Source: Escherichia coli (GTDB lineage Bacteria > Pseudomonadota > Gammaproteobacteria > Enterobacterales > Enterobacteriaceae). From it: a stretch of DNA of 64,000 bases. The stretch lies in NCBI RefSeq assembly GCF_041886205.1, contig NZ_CP169029.1; one strand, 5' to 3'. Numbering within the stretch: position 1 is the stretch's first letter; the number at the start of each line of letters is the position of its first letter. Below, one piece after another: positions 28,429 through 46,810 of this stretch. The notes under the pieces are model-generated. The model did no database searches, had not been told where the DNA came from, and worked only from the letters and a program-made list of their open reading frames with translations. Made by a program: the position numbers and the translations under genes.

Positions 28429-28462
28429 AAAAAAGCCCCCGGAAGGTGATCTTCCGGGGGCT
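28429..28462 (-). terminator. his operon attenuator (rho-independent terminator between hisL and hisG)
   Basis: On the minus strand a GC-rich hairpin (agcccccggaag ... cttccgggggct) is followed by a U run, directly downstream of the His-rich leader ORF. Confidence 0.85.
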
Positions 28463-28525
28463 TTCTCATGCGTTCATGCACCACTGGAAGATCTGAATGT
28501 CTTCCAGCACACATCGCCTGAAAGA

Positions 28526-37980: not shown

Positions 37981-39039
37981 GTGCGTGCCGATAAGTCATT
38001 AAGCCCGTTTGAAATCCGGGTATACCGCCATTACCGCATTGTGCATGGTACTCGGGTCGCGCTGGCATTCCTGCTCACTTTTCTCATTATCCGCCTGTTT
38101 ACTATCCCGGAAAGTACCTGGCCGCTGGTCACCATGGTGGTGATTATGGGGCCAATCTCGTTCTGGGGGAACGTTGTCCCTCGCGCATTCGAACGTATTG
38201 GCGGTACGGTGTTGGGGTCGATTTTAGGTCTTATCGCTCTGCAACTGGAGTTAATCTCGTTACCGCTGATGTTAGTCTGGTGCGCGGCGGCTATGTTTCT
38301 TTGCGGTTGGCTGGCGCTGGGCAAGAAACCGTATCAAGGTTTATTGATTGGGGTGACGCTGGCAATTGTTGTTGGTTCCCCGACAGGTGAAATTAATACG
38401 GCGTTATGGCGAAGCGGCGATGTGATCCTCGGCTCTTTACTGGCAATGTTGTTTACCGGTATCTGGCCACAACGGGCGTTCATCCACTGGCGCATTCAAC
38501 TGGCAAAAAGTCTGACCGAGTATAATCGGGTCTATCAATCTGCATTCTCACCGAACTTACTCGAACGCCCGCGTCTGGAAAGCCATCTACAAAAACTCCT
38601 GACCGATGCCGTGAAAATGCGTGGGCTGATTGCGCCCGCCAGCAAAGAAACCCGTATTCCAAAATCGATATATGAAGGTATCCAGACCATTAATCGCAAT
38701 CTGGTTTGTATGCTGGAGTTGCAAATCAATGCATACTGGGCCACGCGCCCCAGCCATTTCGTGTTATTGAACGCGCAAAAACTTCGTGATACCCAGCATA
38801 TGATGCAGCAAATACTGCTGAGCCTTGTTCATGCGCTGTACGAAGGTAATCCGCAGCCGGTTTTTGCCAATACGGAAAAATTGAACGATGCTGTGGAAGA
38901 GCTGCGTCAGTTGCTGAATAACCACCATGACCTGAAGGTTGTGGAAACACCAATCTATGGTTATGTGTGGCTGAACATGGAAACGGCACATCAGCTTGAG
39001 TTGCTATCGAATCTGATTTGCCGGGCCTTGCGCAAATAA
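37981..39039 (+). CDS. yeeA: inner membrane protein YeeA (FUSC-like)
   Basis: 352 aa with N-terminal multi-TM region; conserved position between sbmC and yeeX. Confidence 0.85.
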   Translation: MRADKSLSPFEIRVYRHYRIVHGTRVALAFLLTFLIIRLFTIPESTWPLVTMVVIMGPISFWGNVVPRAFERIGGTVLGSILGLIALQLELISLPLMLVWCAAAMFLCGWLALGKKPYQGLLIGVTLAIVVGSPTGEINTALWRSGDVILGSLLAMLFTGIWPQRAFIHWRIQLAKSLTEYNRVYQSAFSPNLLERPRLESHLQKLLTDAVKMRGLIAPASKETRIPKSIYEGIQTINRNLVCMLELQINAYWATRPSHFVLLNAQKLRDTQHMMQQILLSLVHALYEGNPQPVFANTEKLNDAVEELRQLLNNHHDLKVVETPIYGYVWLNMETAHQLELLSNLICRALRK

Positions 39040-39210
39040 TTCCTGAACTTCAGAATCATCTTGCTGCTGCTTCGATTCAGCAAGGATAAAGGGTATGATA
39101 GTGAAAAGGGATAAAAGCATTGTCATCTGCGGCAGCTATGAGTAATGTTGGCCCTAACGAATAGCGGTTGCTTAAACGAATCCGACTCTCACATTATCAG
39201 GGGTATAAAA

Positions 39211-39540
39211 ATGGAAACTACCAAGCCTTCATTCCAGGACGTACTGGAATTTGTTCGTCTGTTCCGTCGTAAGAACAAACTGCAACGTGAAATTCAGGAC
39301 GTTGAGAAAAAGATCCGTGACAACCAGAAGCGCGTCCTGTTGCTGGACAACCTGAGCGATTACATCAAGCCAGGGATGAGCGTTGAAGCAATCCAGGGCA
39401 TCATCGCCAGCATGAAAGGTGACTATGAAGATCGCGTTGACGATTACATCATCAAAAATGCCGAGCTCTCCAAAGAACGCCGCGATATCTCCAAAAAGCT
39501 GAAAGCTATGGGCGAAATGAAAAACGGCGAAGCGAAGTAA
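39211..39540 (+). CDS. yeeX: UPF0265 family protein YeeX
   Basis: 109 aa from [41 protein letters not shown]; the ORF-track upstream extension is rejected. Confidence 0.9.
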
Positions 39541-39640
39541 TTCCCGTTTTATTCAATGAGGGTTGCCCGGCAACCCTCATTGCTCATTGATTCTTATCTG
39601 TGTATCACCGTCATCATTCTCATCTGAGAACCAATCGAAA

Positions 39641-39890
39641 TTAACAACAGCCTTCTTCTGTATGCAGCAAGGCAAAAAGTTCTGTAACTCCATTGTTATT
39701 AACTGCACTGGTTACTAACACGTTGTGCGCTCCAGCTTCCCGTAACCAACTTTTCACCAAAGATATTTGTTCCATGCTGGCTAAATCTGCTTTGGTTACT
39801 ACTCCAATGACCGGGTGATTCATGGCCCGGTAGGGCGTTTTTACCTCTAATTCCTGCTTCAGCGCTGAGATTCCTGCTTGTTGCCGGAAA
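39641..39890 (-). pseudogene. C-terminal gene fragment (possibly small GTPase-like); 5' end replaced by an IS66 remnant
   Basis: ORF 39641..39997 has a C-terminal part (VIGVVTKADLASMEQISLVKSWLREAGAHNVLVTSAVNNNGVTELFALL) that reads as a protein fragment, while its N-terminal part is encoded antisense to an IS66 transposase fragment. Confidence 0.4.
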
Positions 39891-39892
39891 AG

Positions 39893-40052
39893 CAGGCACC
39901 TGCCGTCTGAACGGTATCGATCCGGAAGCGTATCTGCGCCATATTCTGAGCATACTGCCGGAATGGCCCTCCAACCGTGTTGACGAACTCCTGCCATGGA
40001 ACGTAGTTCTCACCAATAAATAAGCGTCAATACGGTGCTCCGTTGACGCTTA
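39893..40052 (+). mobile_element. IS66-family right-end remnant (3' end of transposase gene plus terminal inverted repeat)
   Basis: Plus-strand translation GTCRLNGIDPEAYLRHILSILPEWPSNRVDELLPWNVVLTNK* matches the C-terminus of the intact IS66-family transposase at 57043..58614 ([33 protein letters not shown]); followed by caatacggtgctccgttgacgcttac, resembling that copy's terminal repeat. Confidence 0.75.
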
Positions 40053-40437
40053 CTTTAATCCGTTTTCTGAGCTTAGATTTTTCTGTTCCTACCCAGACCG
40101 TGGATTTGGAATTCATTTTTTGTCAGGTCAATGCTAATCGTTAAAACGGCCATAACGCACCTCCACTGGAAGGTTTATCAGTAATATCCTACCGTTGCTT
40201 CATGGTCGGGGCGTCCATTCCATTATTATCGGTTTTCCTTTCTGTTTATAAATGAAAACGCCAGCTGTATTCAGGCTGGCGTCAGGGGAAATGAAGCCTG
40301 TTGAGTGAGATTCACCGGTTCTGGTGCAGAAGCTGCAGATGGCGCAGGGTAAGGACATCTTCTCTTGCCTGCTTAATACAGGACAACAGTGCTGTTTCTG
40401 TGGTTAATGGTACTATACCCTGCATCACTGCATTGTC

Positions 40438-40632
40438 TTACAGCAACTGGTGAGGGCTGGCATAAGTTGCCGGTGTTTCGGTAGAGTCACGGTCATCCAC
40501 CACGCGGAGTGAATAACCTTTTTCAGCGGCCTTATTAATCAGTTCAGTGATATTAACACCATCAATGTCAACGACAATGTGCCCCATATCCAGCGCCTGT
40601 ACGTTAACGCTGTCGGCTTCCAGTGTCATCAT
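40438..40632 (-). CDS. hypothetical 64-aa protein
   Basis: ATG preceded by a strong Shine-Dalgarno (ggaggcgaaatgatg on the coding strand); compositionally typical coding sequence; function unknown to me. Confidence 0.45.
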   Translation of the reverse strand: MMTLEADSVNVQALDMGHIVVDIDGVNITELINKAAEKGYSLRVVDDRDSTETPATYASPHQLL

Positions 40633-40749
40633 TTCGCCTCCGGATACTTACCCAGGGTAATGTTATTTACCGTTCTGTAATTGTCGCGGGTCATCAGGCC
40701 GGTCGCCCTGCGAGCCCGGAGGATATCGATGCTGTTTATTAACTGAGAG

Positions 40750-41459
40750 CGGGTATGGGCGCTGCTTCGCAGACAGGCAGAACTTGATGGTATGCCTGCG
40801 ATCAATGCCAAACGTGTTTACCGGATCATGCGCCAGAATGCGCTGTTGCTTGAGCGAAAACCTGCTGTACCGCCATCGAAACGGGCACATACAGGCAGAG
40901 TGGCCGTGAAAGAAAGCAATCAGCGATGGTGCTCTGACGGGTTCGAGTTCTGCTGTGATAACGGAGAGAGACTGCGTGTCACGTTCGCGCTGGACTGCTG
41001 TGATCGTGAGGCACTGCACTGGGCGGTCACTACCGGCGGCTTCAACAGTGAAACAGTACAGGACGTCATGCTGGGAGCGGTGGAACGCCGCTTCGGCAAC
41101 GATCTTCCGTCGTCTCCAGTGGAGTGGCTGACGGATAATGGTTCATGCTACCGGGCTAATGAAACACGCCAGTTCGCCCGGATGTTGGGACTTGAACCGA
41201 AGAACACGGCGGTGCGGAGTCCGGAGAGTAACGGAATAGCAGAGAGCTTCGTGAAAACGATAAAGCGTGACTACATCAGTATCATGCCCAAACCAGACGG
41301 GTTAACGGCAGCAAAGAACCTTGCAGAGGCGTTCGAGCATTATAACGAATGGCATCCGCATAGTGCGCTGGGTTATCGCTCGCCACGGGAATATCTGCGG
41401 CAGCGGGCTTGTAATGGGTTAAGTGATAACAGATGTCTGGAAATATAGGGGCAAATCCA
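40750..41459 (+). mobile_element. insD: truncated IS2 (3' about 710 bp: C-terminal 218 codons of InsD/OrfB plus right terminal repeat)
   Basis: ORF 40792..41448 translates to the IS2 OrfB C-terminus ([53 protein letters not shown]...); upstream in-frame [14 protein letters not shown] is preceded by a stop; IS2 end ...ggggcaaatcca at about 41459. Confidence 0.9.
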
Positions 41460-41792
41460 GCCACGAATGCGGATTTGTTTACGGCCTGCCAAGGAGTTGT
41501 CTGTTATCTCTACTCCGGGGATGTCCTGCAAATTATCGGCTATGGAGGCATTGGTGGAGTTCTGCAATGTTTGTTGGTCAATAACCTGTATAGTCGCCGG
41601 GCTTTCCCAAAGGTTGCTTGCCGAACGATTCGTGGTCACGACGAGCGTCTCTTCGTTGCTGATTTTTGTTTCTGAAGAAGTTGCGGTTGCAGTAGAAACT
41701 ATCCCAGAAATGCATAATGACAGAGTGGAAAGGATATAAATTCGACAAGGTATATTATATAACATTTCATCCCTCATTAATACAAAGTACAA
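41460..41792 (-). pseudogene. yoeA: N-terminal fragment of a TonB-dependent outer-membrane receptor gene, truncated by IS2 (yoeA-like)
   Basis: ORF 41373..41792 minus begins with a signal peptide and plug-domain motifs (ETLVVTTNRSASNLWESPATIQVIDQQTLQ ... DNLQDIPGVEITDNSLAGRKQIRIRG) and then runs into the IS2 end. Confidence 0.75.
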
Positions 41793-41968
41793 ATGATTGC
41801 TGTAATGATAATTATTTTCATTTATGTTCTCATATATCTATAATTATTGTCATCTTCATAAATTGTAAATATCAAACATTTTTGACCTTAATCATGTTTT
41901 TTGATAGATATTTTACGACTGAACATATCCGTCGTTTCCTCTGACTCGTGTCAGTCGGTCTCTGGTTG

Positions 41969-42010
41969 TATCCACGGACCGCACTCTTGACATAAGAGTG
42001 CGGTCCGTGG
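41969..42010. repeat. 42-bp near-perfect palindrome (ccacggaccgcactctt gaca taagagtgcggtccgtgg)
   Basis: Read directly; 17-bp arms around a 4-nt loop, located just upstream of the yoeA-like fragment. Confidence 0.7.
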
Positions 42011-43436
42011 AAAACGGAGTTGAAAAAATGGTGTCTGAAAGAAGGTACCATCATTGTGATGACAAATACTTTGGCGTGGATAATGTAATTAATTGCTGAA
42101 ATTGACCGTATATGCGGTAAGACTCATATCAGTACCAGGTCCGGTTAATTGCTGATACTAATATAAACTTTTTACAAAAGGATGAATGCAGAAGGTTACT
42201 CTAATGGCCAGAGTGATGACAATGATGGTCAGACGTTGACCTGCAGAAACTGCATTTTAATTGGTCTATAAAGTCTGCAAGAGGAATCAGGGTCAGATCA
42301 GTGAGTCTTATCGCGGCCCGAAGCTATGACTGAAAGAAGGCTGGATACAGAATTGCAACAATTTGGCAATGTCAGAACACAGAAGCTTTGCAAGCAGGTG
42401 AAAGGTTATGTCTAGCAAAAGGAGTATATCAGAATATATCTACTGATGTACAAAACACAACAATAGCTTCATGATATATAAATACGTGATGACGAGTGGT
42501 ACTCCGCATGGTTATTTAACTTCTCAGCACCACTAATGATCCTGAGCAACTTCGTATTTGGGCCATTACCATGGAGTAGAAAGCTGTGTCTGAGAATGCA
42601 GAATTTGAGAAAAGAATTCGCTTTCTTGGAGAGCTTCTGAAAATGGCACGCTAACAACGTTTTGTTAAAAAATGTGAATCACTTGCCGGGGCTGCATTTT
42701 CTATTCGAGGAGAATGTTGACGTAGATATTACAGAAATCTCAGCGCATCAGGATAAACTGCTACCTTAGGTCAACCACCAAAAGAAAATACAATACGTCC
42801 AGTTTGTATGCCTTTAATAACACATCTTCTAAATGTTGAAGAATTATCCCGCCTGCTGAAGAACGTTGCTCTGAGTGTGATAAACCTTTTTATTCTTGAT
42901 GATGTCAGCGAGAAGATGGAATATATCCCCGACTGGGTCGTGGTTACCCGGTTAAACATCTGGTGGCGCTAATAAATCTGGCAAGTCACATTCTGTTGAA
43001 TGCTGTGACAGTGCCTTACCGAGAGAGCGAAATTGTGGTGTTCTAGTGCATAGTCGCCACCATTCCGGATAATTCTATTACGTTGTTTTACAAGTTCTTT
43101 TACAGCGCAGATCTGTCGCTGACGTTGAATCAATAGCCTGGATTTCAGAACACAATGCCCGTTTGCTGGTTGTTCCGGCAGTAGCATTAATTCATTATCT
43201 GAATGAAATGTGTCAATCCACAGAAACCGCTGTCAATGACGCATTTTGTCGGACGTTAACACGAGAAAGTCTGGCTATTCCGTAATGCCATCTTATTTCG
43301 TAATGGATTGAGAATGCTGGATTTTTAATTATATTACGCGCAGTATTAATCGCGTAAATGTTTTGCGGTCAGCAACGGTGGGGGATCCATTGTTCTGTTC
43401 AATGAATACCATCATACATTTGAATCAGGAGTCGGT

Positions 43437-43982
43437 ATGATGATTTTGGTGACGGGGGGCGCACGGAGCGGGAAGAGTCGCCACGCAGAGGCGCTTATTG
43501 GGGACTCTTCACAGGTTCTGTATATCGCTACCTCGCAAATCCTTGATGATGAGATGGCTGCACGGATAGAACATCATCGGCAAGGCCGCCCGGAGCACTG
43601 GCGCACAGTGGAGCGCTGGCAACATCTTGATGAATTAATTCATGCAGACATTAACCCGAATGAGGTTGTGTTGCTTGAATGCGTTACCACAATGGTGACT
43701 AATCTGTTGTTTGATTATGGCGGCGATAAAGACCCTGATGAATGGGATTATCAGGCGATGGAACAGGCGATTAATGCTGAGATTCAGTCGTTGATTGCTG
43801 CCTGCCAACGTTGCCCCGCAAAGGTTGTATTAGTGACTAACGAAGTGGGAATGGGGATTGTGCCGGAGAGTCGTCTGGCACGACATTTTCGTGATATTGC
43901 CGGGCGGGTAAATCAGCAGTTGGCCGCTGCGGCAAATGAAGTATGGCTGGTGGTTTCGGGTATTGGAGTAAAAATCAAATGA
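43437..43982 (+). CDS. cobU: adenosylcobinamide kinase / adenosylcobinamide-phosphate guanylyltransferase
   Basis: 181 aa; P-loop [18 protein letters not shown]. Confidence 0.95.
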
Positions 43983-44722
43983 GTAAATTATTTTGGGCGA
44001 TGCTCTCATTTATTACGCGTCTGCCTGTACCGCGTCGCTGGTCCCAGGGACTGGATTTCGAGCATTATTCTCGCGGTATTATTACTTTTCCTTTGATTGG
44101 ATTATTGCTTGGCGCGATTAGCGGGCTGGTCTTCATGGTGCTGCAGGCATGGTGTGGCGCACCACTGGCGGCACTGTTTAGCGTACTTGTGCTGGTGCTG
44201 ATGACCGGGGGATTCCATCTGGACGGCCTCGCTGATACCTGTGATGGCGTATTTTCTGCACGTAGCCGCGATCGCATGTTGGAAATCATGCGTGATAGCC
44301 GTTTAGGCACCCACGGCGGTCTGGCATTGATTTTTGTGGTACTGGCAAAGATTCTGGTGTTAAGCGAGTTGGCTCTGCGTGGCGAATCGATCCTTGCATC
44401 GCTGGCGGCAGCATGTGCGGTCAGCCGCGGGACTGCCGCATTATTGATGTATCGTCATCGTTATGCGCGGGAAGAAGGGCTTGGCAATGTGTTCATTGGC
44501 AAAATTGATGGGCGACAAACCTGCGTCACACTCGGCTTAGCCGCTATTTTTGCTGCCGTATTATTGCCGGGTATGCATGGTGTGGCTGCTATGGTGGTGA
44601 CGATGGTGGCGATTTTCATCCTCGGTCAGCTTCTCAAACGTACGCTGGGCGGGCAAACGGGCGATACGCTGGGAGCAGCCATAGAGCTTGGTGAACTGGT
44701 CTTCCTGCTGGCACTGCTATAA
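43979..44722 (+). CDS. cobS: adenosylcobinamide-GDP ribazoletransferase (cobalamin synthase)
   Basis: 247 aa from [18 protein letters not shown]; polytopic membrane protein; overlaps the cobU stop. Confidence 0.95.
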
Positions 44723-44733
44723 AGAGACGTGAG

Positions 44734-45813
44734 ATGCAAATACTTGCCGATTTACTGAATACGATCCCAGCCATCGATTCTACCGCTATGTCGCGTGCAC
44801 AACGGCATATTGACGGGTTACTCAAACCTGTTGGTAGCCTGGGAAAGCTGGAGGTGCTTGCCATACAACTGGCAGGAATGCCGGGGTTGAATGGCATACC
44901 GCATGTGGGCAAAAAAGCGGTACTGGTTATGTGTGCCGATCACGGCGTCTGGGAGGAAGGGGTCGCTATTTCTCCAAAAGAAGTGACAGCCATACAGGCT
45001 GAAAATATGACCCGTGGAACAACCGGCGTGTGTGTGCTGGCAGAACAAGCGGGCGCTAACGTCCACGTAATTGATGTTGGTATTGATACTGCTGAGCCTA
45101 TCCCCGGGCTTATCAACATGCATGTCGCACGAGGTAGCGGCAATATTGCTTCAGCTCCGGCAATGAGTCGCCGTCAGGCTGAAAAGTTGCTTTTGGACGT
45201 CATATGTTATACGCAGGAGCTGGCAAAAAACGGTGTCACGCTGTTTGGTGTAGGTGAACTGGGGATGGCAAACACGACACCGGCAGCAGCAATAGTCAGC
45301 ACAATCACTGGCCGGAATCCTGAAGAAGTGGTTGGGATTGGCGCAAACCTGCCGACAGATAAACTGGCTAATAAAATTGATGTTGTGCGTCGGGCGATTA
45401 CGTTGAATCAACCAAATCCTCAGGATGGTGTTGATGTCCTGGCAAAAGTGGGTGGATTTGATTTGGTCGGAATAGCTGGAGTGATGTTAGGTGCTGCTTC
45501 CTGCGGTTTACCCGTGTTGCTGGATGGATTTCTTTCTTATGCTGCTGCGCTCGCAGCCTGCCAGATGTCTCCTGCGATCAAACCGTATCTCATTCCTTCT
45601 CACCTGTCGGCAGAAAAAGGCGCGCGTATAGCGCTCTCGCATTTGGGGCTGGAGCCTTATCTCAATATGGAGATGCGTTTAGGTGAGGGGAGTGGCGCAG
45701 CTCTGGCGATGCCCATCATCGAAGCTGCCTGTGCGATATACAACAACATGGGCGAACTTGCTGCCAGTAATATTGTTCTACCGGGGAATACGACTTCTGA
45801 TTTGAACAGTTAA
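44734..45813 (+). CDS. cobT: nicotinate-nucleotide--dimethylbenzimidazole phosphoribosyltransferase
   Basis: 359 aa; [40 protein letters not shown]. Confidence 0.95.
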
Positions 45814-45877
45814 AAACGAAAAGTCTGATAAAAGCTATACTTAACGGATAGCTTTCGCGGCATAGGAAAGGGACATG

Positions 45878-46810
45878 ATGCGTCGTGTAAATATTCTTTG
45901 CTCATTTGCTCTGCTTTTTGCCAGCCATACTAGCCTGGCGGTAACTTATCCATTACCTCCAGAGGGTAGCCGTTTAGTGGGGCAGTCGTTTACTGTAACT
46001 GTTCCTGATCACAATACCCAGCCGCTGGAGACTTTTGCCGCACAATACGGGCAAGGGTTAAGTAACATGCTGGAAGCGAACCCGGGCGCTGATGTTTTTT
46101 TGCCGAAGTCTGGCTCGCAACTCACCATTCCGCAGCAACTGATTTTGCCCGACACTGTTCGTAAAGGGATTGTTGTTAACGTCGCTGAGATGCGTCTTTA
46201 TTACTACCCACCAGACAGTAATACTGTGGAAGTCTTTCCTATTGGTATCGGCCAGGCTGGGCGAGAAACCCCGCGTAACTGGGTGACTACCGTTGAACGT
46301 AAACAAGAAGCTCCAACCTGGACGCCAACGCCGAACACTCGGCGCGAATATGCGAAACGAGGGGAGAGTTTGCCCGCATTTGTTCCTGCGGGCCCCGATA
46401 ATCCCATGGGGCTGTACGCGATTTATATTGGCAGGTTGTATGCCATCCATGGTACCAATGCCAATTTTGGTATTGGGCTCCGGGTAAGTCAGGGCTGTAT
46501 TCGTCTGCGCAATGACGATATCAAATATCTGTTTGATAATGTTCCTGTTGGGACGCGTGTGCAAATTATCGACCAGCCAGTAAAATACACCACTGAACCA
46601 GATGGCTCGAACTGGCTGGAAGTTCATGAGCCGTTGTCGCGCAATCGTGCAGAATATGAGTCTGACCGAAAAGTGCCATTGCCGGTAACCCCATCTTTGC
46701 GGGCGTTTATCAACGGGCAAGAAGTTGATGTAAATCGCGCAAATGCTGCGTTGCAACGTCGATCGGGAATGCCTGTGCAAATTAGTTCTGGTTCAAGACA
46801 GATGTTTTAA
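45878..46810 (+). CDS. ldtA: L,D-transpeptidase (YkuD domain) ErfK/LdtA
   Basis: About 310 aa; signal peptide and catalytic motif ([24 protein letters not shown]). Confidence 0.9.

Follow-up and report, generated by a model that had tools for sequence, protein, structure and literature searches.

A perfect palindrome in the tail of a dead IS110-family element of Escherichia coli, probably completed by template switching at or after gene death

Why does a ~1.2-kb stretch of E. coli chromosome without intact genes carry a perfect palindrome, and should that palindrome be read as a regulatory site, a terminator, a dispersed repeat or the residue of a mutational event? The stretch belongs to a K-12-like segment, reversed relative to MG1655, which we analysed as a window of 64,000 nucleotides and which presents, from left to right, IS2, an N-terminal fragment of yoeA, the ~1.2 kb in question, a cbi remnant and cobUST. 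The yoeA fragment (41460-41765, - strand) is a pseudogene of an hma-like TonB-dependent receptor, its left side cut by IS2, and the MG1655 annotation places two pseudogenes within the gap, of which yoeH (b4641) maps to window positions 41981-42139 on the + strand and starts within the left arm of the palindrome. An initial annotation of this DNA associated the palindrome with the truncated receptor and with the breakpoint that IS2 makes in yoeA; the palindrome, separated by 206 bp from the start codon of yoeA (41765, - strand), sits in another pseudogene, yoeH, and the breakpoint, ~520 bp away, has no link to it. That annotation did not consider the palindrome as a mutational product within a decayed gene, which is the reading that we come to favor here.

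An inverted-repeat search defines two 18-nt arms, at 41971-41988 (TCCACGGACCGCACTCTT) and 41994-42011 (AAGAGTGCGGTCCGTGGA), which are 100% complementary and flank a 5-nt spacer, GACAT (41989-41993); in MG1655 the structure corresponds to positions 2,068,389-2,068,429. The near-perfect palindrome originally described at 41969-42010, with a 17-bp stem, is thereby confirmed as a real structure whose arms do pair, at 18 of 18 positions, while its coordinates were off by 1-2 nt and its stem is in fact 18 bp long. It is the longest perfect hairpin of the 64-kb window, where the runners-up measure 14 bp and the maxima of 30 shuffles 8-11 bp, and neither arm has a second copy in the window at up to three mismatches. 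Folding of both strands, proposed at the outset as a check, yields a strong hairpin each way: the + strand RNA is predicted to form a 19-bp stem (one G.U pair at the loop) within a longer imperfect one, the 101-nt context reaching -50.3 kcal/mol (z = -8.6 vs. shuffles), and the corresponding - strand context reaches -44.3 kcal/mol (z = -7.8), in line with the suggested capacity for a strong RNA or DNA hairpin. The palindrome is flanked by AAAACGGAG on the + strand and ATACAACC on the - strand; as already remarked in setting it apart from terminators, neither strand has a T run after it, and a terminator scan makes no call there, just as Rfam covariance models give no match at E <= 1 across 38000-46000. 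The next-longest perfect hairpins in the window, at 39554-39582 and 28432-28464, have 14-bp stems, and the latter, with AAA and TTT on its flanks, resembles a bidirectional terminator.

Homology places the palindrome in the 5'-truncated, ~420-bp tail of a dead IS110-family (IS1111-like) element, the pseudogene yoeH. A DNA profile of five full-length relatives gives a single contiguous match at 41979-42397 (model positions 987-1414, E = 2.8e-44, nhmmer), and a profile of the C-terminal coding region alone matches 41969-42142 (E = 1.5e-9, nhmmer). The transposase C-terminal remnant itself spans 41979-42148 on the + strand, some 55 codons interrupted by stops at 41993-41995 and 42086-42088 and closed by the original stop codon at 42146-42148, and its homology may extend to 41969 if a 10-nt deletion is allowed. 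Its frame-0 translation, ALLTxECGPWKTELKK..., is 47% identical over 53 aa (E = 4e-11, BLASTP) to residues 285-337 of the transposase in reference sequence L007, an IS110-family RNA-guided transposase (NF033542 at E = 1.5e-99, PF01548, PF02371), and in the same frame ...YPRTALLT*ECGPWKTELKKWCLKEGTIIVMTNTLAWIM*LIAEIDRICGKTHISTRSG* aligns with the relatives' C-terminus ...IHGARAAALLTKEPGPWITELKKRRPASVAIVAMANKLARTVWAIAAHGRKYDKNHVSIRPY*. The non-coding right end of the same element follows at 42149-42397 (+ strand), 67-78% identical to those of intact relatives and lacking its last ~15 nt; right-end homology at this identity level covers window positions 42107-42393 in comparison with L007, L009, L026-L031 and L036. 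With profiles from eight relatives, the left-end profile finds no match and the N-terminal profile gives E = 9, a chance level equal to that of matches elsewhere; judged by this homology, the DEDD catalytic N-terminal domain and the left end are missing and the window copy is truncated. yoeH has been described as a non-functional transposase (PMC12363166). On the other side, hma-type flanking sequence is recognisable as far as 41943, which puts the truncation edge at most ~25 nt from the base of the stem.

Rightward of the palindrome, the DNA resembles many enterobacterial plasmid sequences and resolves into the IS110-family element and an IS66-family one, the latter being a decayed fragment at 42395-42950 (+ strand; end of tnpB and start of tnpC) lying directly against the truncated IS110-family right end. 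It is ~70% identical to IS66-family elements and adjoins 42945-43133, a fragment labelled in RefSeq as an 'IS4 family transposase'; because its neighbor is IS66-like, that label may be wrong. An intact IS110-family copy on plasmid pRHB15-C23_2 (L007 1887-3313), in which ends of 136 nt (left) and 271 nt (right) enclose the gene of a 339-aa transposase, is itself located within an IS66-family tnpC gene (by comparison with L008), and the remnant in the window likewise abuts IS66-family sequence, at another IS66 position, which hints at a target preference or a repeated association. The 271-nt right ends of the clade (L007 3043-3313; L026-L031) are 75-90% identical, compared with only 58-68% for the transposases, as would be expected for the right-end bridge/seek RNA of IS1111-type elements; the window keeps all of the right end except its last ~15 nt, and Rfam has no match for it. 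At the left end of relatives (L026, L028, L031, L032 and L033, ~1410-1500) we observe a long-range stem, GTGGAGCCTCGCAG ... CTGGAGACTCCAC, which reaches to 2-4 nt from the ATG, sequesters the GGAG ribosome-binding site and carries apparently compensatory changes, e.g. GAGCC/GACTC vs. GATCC/GGATC. A reading of the palindrome as such a left-end leader, with a 'KYFGVD' at ~42059 as N-terminal remnant, was rejected on the blank left-end profile, the N-terminal E of 9 and the C-terminal homology in the correct frame. Two further readings were likewise discarded: insertion of an IS110-type element beside a pre-existing palindrome, since both arms lie inside the transposase homology, and a MITE or IS terminal inverted repeats, in view of the single copy, the 5-nt spacer and the coding-derived arms.

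Alignment with intact relatives assigns each arm to particular codons. The right arm corresponds to the (K)-E-C-G-P-W codons of the remnant, at a site where relatives conserve GGnCCrTGGA within K-E-P-G-P-W, and has TGC in place of their Pro codon (CCT). In the left arm, the outer 8 nt match the relatives' I-H-G codons and the inner GCACTCTT(G), read as GCA CTC TTG, retains the A-L-L that relatives encode as GCA TTA CTG; given a 10-nt deletion in this arm, its outer part and flank, TGTATCCACGGA, agree at 11 of 12 positions with the (F)-I-H-G codons TTTATCCACGGA of relative L030. The relatives' I-H-G (ATy-CAy-GG) and P-W-I (CCr-TGG-AT) codons are themselves inverted complements, with ~37 unpaired nt between them. 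Their longest perfect stem is 5 bp vs. 18 bp in the window, their outer seven pairs comprise 4-6 Watson-Crick and 0-2 G.T pairs, and only 3-4 of the eight alignable interior pairs are complementary, compared with all eight in the window. RNAalifold draws an outer 10-bp stem in six of six close relatives, with zero compensatory double changes and a covariation term of ~0; in many wider relatives the stem is missing, and its presence tracks the I-H-G and P-W-I codons. Because compensatory changes are absent and so many wider relatives go without it, the weak stem of the relatives looks like a by-product of the protein sequence.

What distinguishes the window copy is a 10-nt deletion that, together with clustered substitutions, yields perfect pairing, the differences from relatives all raising complementarity. 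Random drift from the relatives' sequence, simulated with 32% substitutions and one deletion, reached a stem of at least 14 bp in none of 20,000 runs. The motif IHGAR is kept in most of ~24 wider relatives; in the window the I-H-G codons are followed by the 10-nt gap and a change of frame, the A-R codons are gone, and I-H-G and G-P-W stand in different frames. A TAA at 41993-41995, opened by the final T of the spacer at its boundary with the right arm, replaces a Lys codon (AAA/AAG in relatives), and a second TAA at 42086 replaces a Trp codon. The lost A-R, the differing frames and the stops make the perfect palindrome incompatible with a working gene. A word-indexed protein search found no intact member of the same IS lineage, an exhaustive HMMER search returned two fragments only, at 50% identity, and a metagenome scan for the coding pattern K-E-x-G-P-W-K-T-E-L-K-K, built to exclude the E. 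coli pseudogene, gave no matches.

Across 5,426 complete E. coli genomes, the palindrome is matched in about 2,755, always at one locus per genome (the '2 places' counted in each are the two strands of one palindrome), and ~2,670 are without the locus. The whole palindrome is present in 2,211 genomes, as perfect copies in ~1,770, which span several phylogroups, and with one mismatch in ~440; in ~544 others the homology begins only at 41978, inside the left arm, with the outer left arm (41971-41977) missing. The sole mismatch genome that was read, strain uk_P46212 (L004), carries C41982T, a change that still allows G.U pairing in the + strand RNA, and the label ST131 is common among the matches at 98% identity. 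The palindrome is conserved no better than its flanks, and in these counts, with a common uncompensated SNP and a locus lost many times, we find no indication of purifying selection. A scan of one genome from each of ~100,000 species for the degenerate core ACCGNACTCTTN{3,7}AAGAGTNCGGT gave no enterobacterial match in other species and only eight matches overall, all in unrelated metagenome-assembled genomes, which we read as chance. No paper contains the arm sequence save one unrelated paper on grapevine. A dispersed REP/BIME-type repeat, for which the initial annotation had advised a genome-wide search, was rejected on copy number: each genome has a single locus, and there is no other copy in the window.

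In light of these observations, we consider it probable that a quasi-palindrome in the dead IS110-family transposase tail was perfected by template switching at or after gene death and is now passively carried. The starting point would have been a weak quasi-palindrome like that of the relatives, supplied by the I-H-G and P-W-I codons. During replication, the nascent strand would have folded on the outer inverted repeat and copied the interior of one arm from the other, and such a switch would yield the 10-nt deletion and the clustered substitutions together, leaving 18 paired positions and a 5-nt loop. The event would be timed at or after gene death because the invariant A-R of IHGAR is lost, the frame is shifted and a TAA lies at the edge of the loop. 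In E. coli, the conversion of quasi-palindromes into perfect ones by template switching is documented (PMC7202029), and the same process has been put forward as a corrector of imperfect inverted repeats in the course of evolution (PMC5941160); it appears to be the most economical mechanism for the changes in the window. It is important to note that the presumed ancestral state is taken from relatives only ~50% identical in this segment, that the copying direction is ambiguous, and that one single switch does not account for all the differences, so two or more events may be required. The outer left arm may instead be an inverted (fold-back) copy of the right arm arising at the point of truncation, a reading prompted by the full-length profile, which aligns only from 41979. 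The ~1,770 perfect copies across several phylogroups are what neutrality predicts at E. coli levels of divergence, and would also be compatible with maintenance by selection. A yoeH deletion is listed among the mutations of an ofloxacin evolution study (PMC12363166); fluoroquinolones are reported to stimulate quasi-palindrome template switching (PMC7202029).

Whatever its origin, the hairpin is probably transcribed today as part of the yoeH RNA and, though passive, would be able to fold its 19-bp stem there. A sigma-70 promoter-like site at 41815-41844 on the + strand (TTTTCA-18-TATAAT) reads rightward through the palindrome, whose start is ~127 nt downstream, and matches in hexamers and spacing the constitutive 'yoeH' promoter reported by Shimada et al. 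in 2014 (PMC3946193); it is this match that makes transcription of the hairpin probable. Sense and antisense yoeH RNAs have been detected, the antisense only in the absence of RNase III, and the effect of RNase III on yoeH has been attributed to pairing between the two rather than to this hairpin (PMC6847712). The promoter-like site overlaps, on the opposite strand, a Fur-box-like sequence, gtaatgataattattttcatt, at 41803-41823, upstream of the yoeA/hma start. Strain uk_P46212, a B2 strain with an intact receptor gene, has gtaatgataattattatcatt at the corresponding position (L004 4866-4886), the closer match to the Fur consensus.

Three other accounts would give the palindrome, now or in the past, a function of its own. 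It might be a native RNA or DNA structure of the IS lineage, inherited by the remnant, that for instance governs how the downstream bridge/seek RNA is expressed or processed. All six close relatives do fold a stem-loop at this place, the 10-bp outer stem surviving through G.U changes, and the hairpin precedes, by ~150 nt, a right end whose conservation exceeds that of the protein; the same outer stem, however, has no compensatory double changes, follows the I-H-G and P-W-I codons and is missing in many wider relatives, and the perfect form requires a frameshifting 10-nt deletion that removes the A-R of IHGAR and carries a stop codon, so that we hold inheritance of a native structure to be unlikely. 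We find it similarly improbable that the hairpin was exapted as an RNA element of the yoeH transcript, whether for RNase III cleavage, for stability or as a barrier insulating the divergent hma/yoeA promoter region. Such a role could draw on the reported constitutive sigma-70 promoter, on the RNase III-sensitive antisense partner of the yoeH RNA (PMC6847712) and on the ST131 variant C41982T, which retains a G.U pair on the + strand RNA, but the published RNase III effect is ascribed to sense/antisense pairing, the sequence is no better conserved than its surroundings, and it is mismatched without compensation, shortened at 41971-41977 or gone altogether in ~440, ~544 and ~2,670 genomes, respectively.

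A regulatory function in cis fares worse still. The palindrome lies ~130-170 bp upstream of the Fur-box-like yoeA promoter region, a location that would suit an operator of the TonB-dependent receptor gene yoeA/hma, and an intrinsic terminator could likewise be imagined; yet both arms stem from IS transposase codons, a T run is wanting on either strand, 18-bp arms go well beyond typical operator half-sites, and a plasmid-borne hma copy is without the palindrome, its homology stopping at 41943. We regard the operator or terminator reading as largely refuted already and its truth as highly improbable; the regulator binding site entertained by the initial annotation is disfavored as a dedicated site because both arms are former IS110-family transposase coding sequence. 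We see nothing to suggest that the palindrome has been selected to act as an operator, a terminator or a repeat element.

REARRANGEMENTS at the palindrome, in the form of insertions and deletions, raises a further possibility, one compatible with perfection by template switching and bearing on its consequences: that the hairpin or cruciform is a structure-dependent hot spot for IS insertions and deletion endpoints. The comparison with other strains that had been recommended does place IS insertions and one deletion endpoint inside the palindrome. IS3 is found at 41978/79 (L022, L023), tied to the loss of everything leftward to php, including the hma-type receptor gene, which corresponds to yoeA in intact form; an IS2 copy occupies the loop, flanked by a 5-bp target duplication, TGACA (L025); and IS1 lies at 42000/01 (L003), with further IS3-family junctions at ~41943, ~41950 and ~42024. 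When 101 bp with the palindrome at their centre served as query, the match was broken in 549 of 2,760 genomes, as against 3 of 3,554 and 7 of 3,878 for two control segments. Nearly all of the 549, however, descend from a single IS3 event, to which genomes of the L002 type also belong, their IS3 having later been deleted almost entirely through the 9-bp microhomology TCCATATTA, which php has in common with the right inverted repeat of IS3. The scar of that deletion, 14 nt of the IS3 right inverted repeat and a GATCA duplication beside the half-palindrome, is borne by ~544 genomes (L002 4960-5005 compared with L022 1460-1510 and L021 950-990). Although IS1, IS2 and IS3 each occur inside the same 41 bp in different strains, independent events number roughly 3-6 near the palindrome vs. 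at most 3 and at most 7 in the controls, a difference that is not significant, and sampling was biased toward the palindrome. We accordingly entertain the hot spot only as a tentative possibility, and it seems more doubtful that the palindrome is a genuine structure-dependent target capturing unrelated IS elements, IS2 exactly in its loop. Of the recombinogenic hairpin first envisaged near the IS2 breakpoint, the part that survives is the presence of IS junctions inside the palindrome in other strains; the connection with the yoeA breakpoint falls away. If structure-dependent capture were true, the locus would offer a natural chromosomal model for hairpin- or cruciform-directed transposition and for the removal of the neighboring hma island by IS elements, and this possible role as an IS target is the sole mildly novel lead of the analysis, a small one, on structure-directed transposition.

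Together, these results describe a structure that is genuine and striking, has an ordinary explanation, and is neither a regulator site, a terminator nor a member of a known repeat family. An eye-catching feature of the K-12 CP4-44 region can be explained by gene decay and should not be taken for a regulatory element of yoeA/hma. If perfected as we propose, the palindrome would constitute a clean natural case in which an inverted repeat within coding sequence reached perfection only once the gene was dead, in keeping with the proposed shaping of bacterial inverted repeats by template switching.

The locus can be compared with four kinds of known system. The IS110/IS1111 family comprises RNA-guided DEDD transposases with a bridge or seek RNA (PMC11208160), and the remnant matches the transposase C-terminus and long non-coding right end of its IS1111-like clade, whose intact members have left and right ends of 136 and 271 nt; it differs in keeping only the last ~420 bp, with the catalytic domains, the left end and the final ~15 nt gone, and the palindrome is no feature of the family. 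With rho-independent terminators it shares a G+C-rich stem-loop, whereas its stem of 18-19 bp, the lack of a U tract on either strand and of an intact gene ending beside it set it apart. Like REP/BIME and other dispersed extragenic palindromes of E. coli, it is ~40 bp long, lies in a region without intact genes and has IS elements inserted in it, but it is single-copy and coding-derived, with arms that are perfect rather than imperfect. It also bears no resemblance to the REP consensus. A further parallel is offered by the quasi-palindrome mutations of the Ripley model, studied with thyA and lacZ reporters (PMC7202029, PMC5941160): the present event is reconstructed from ~50%-identical relatives, and its converted tract of ~11 bp plus a 10-nt deletion would be larger than usual reporter events and would leave some differences unexplained by a single switch. 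In both, the setting is E. coli and an imperfect repeat, here the weak inverted repeat that the relatives supply, is made perfect by clustered substitutions together with an indel.
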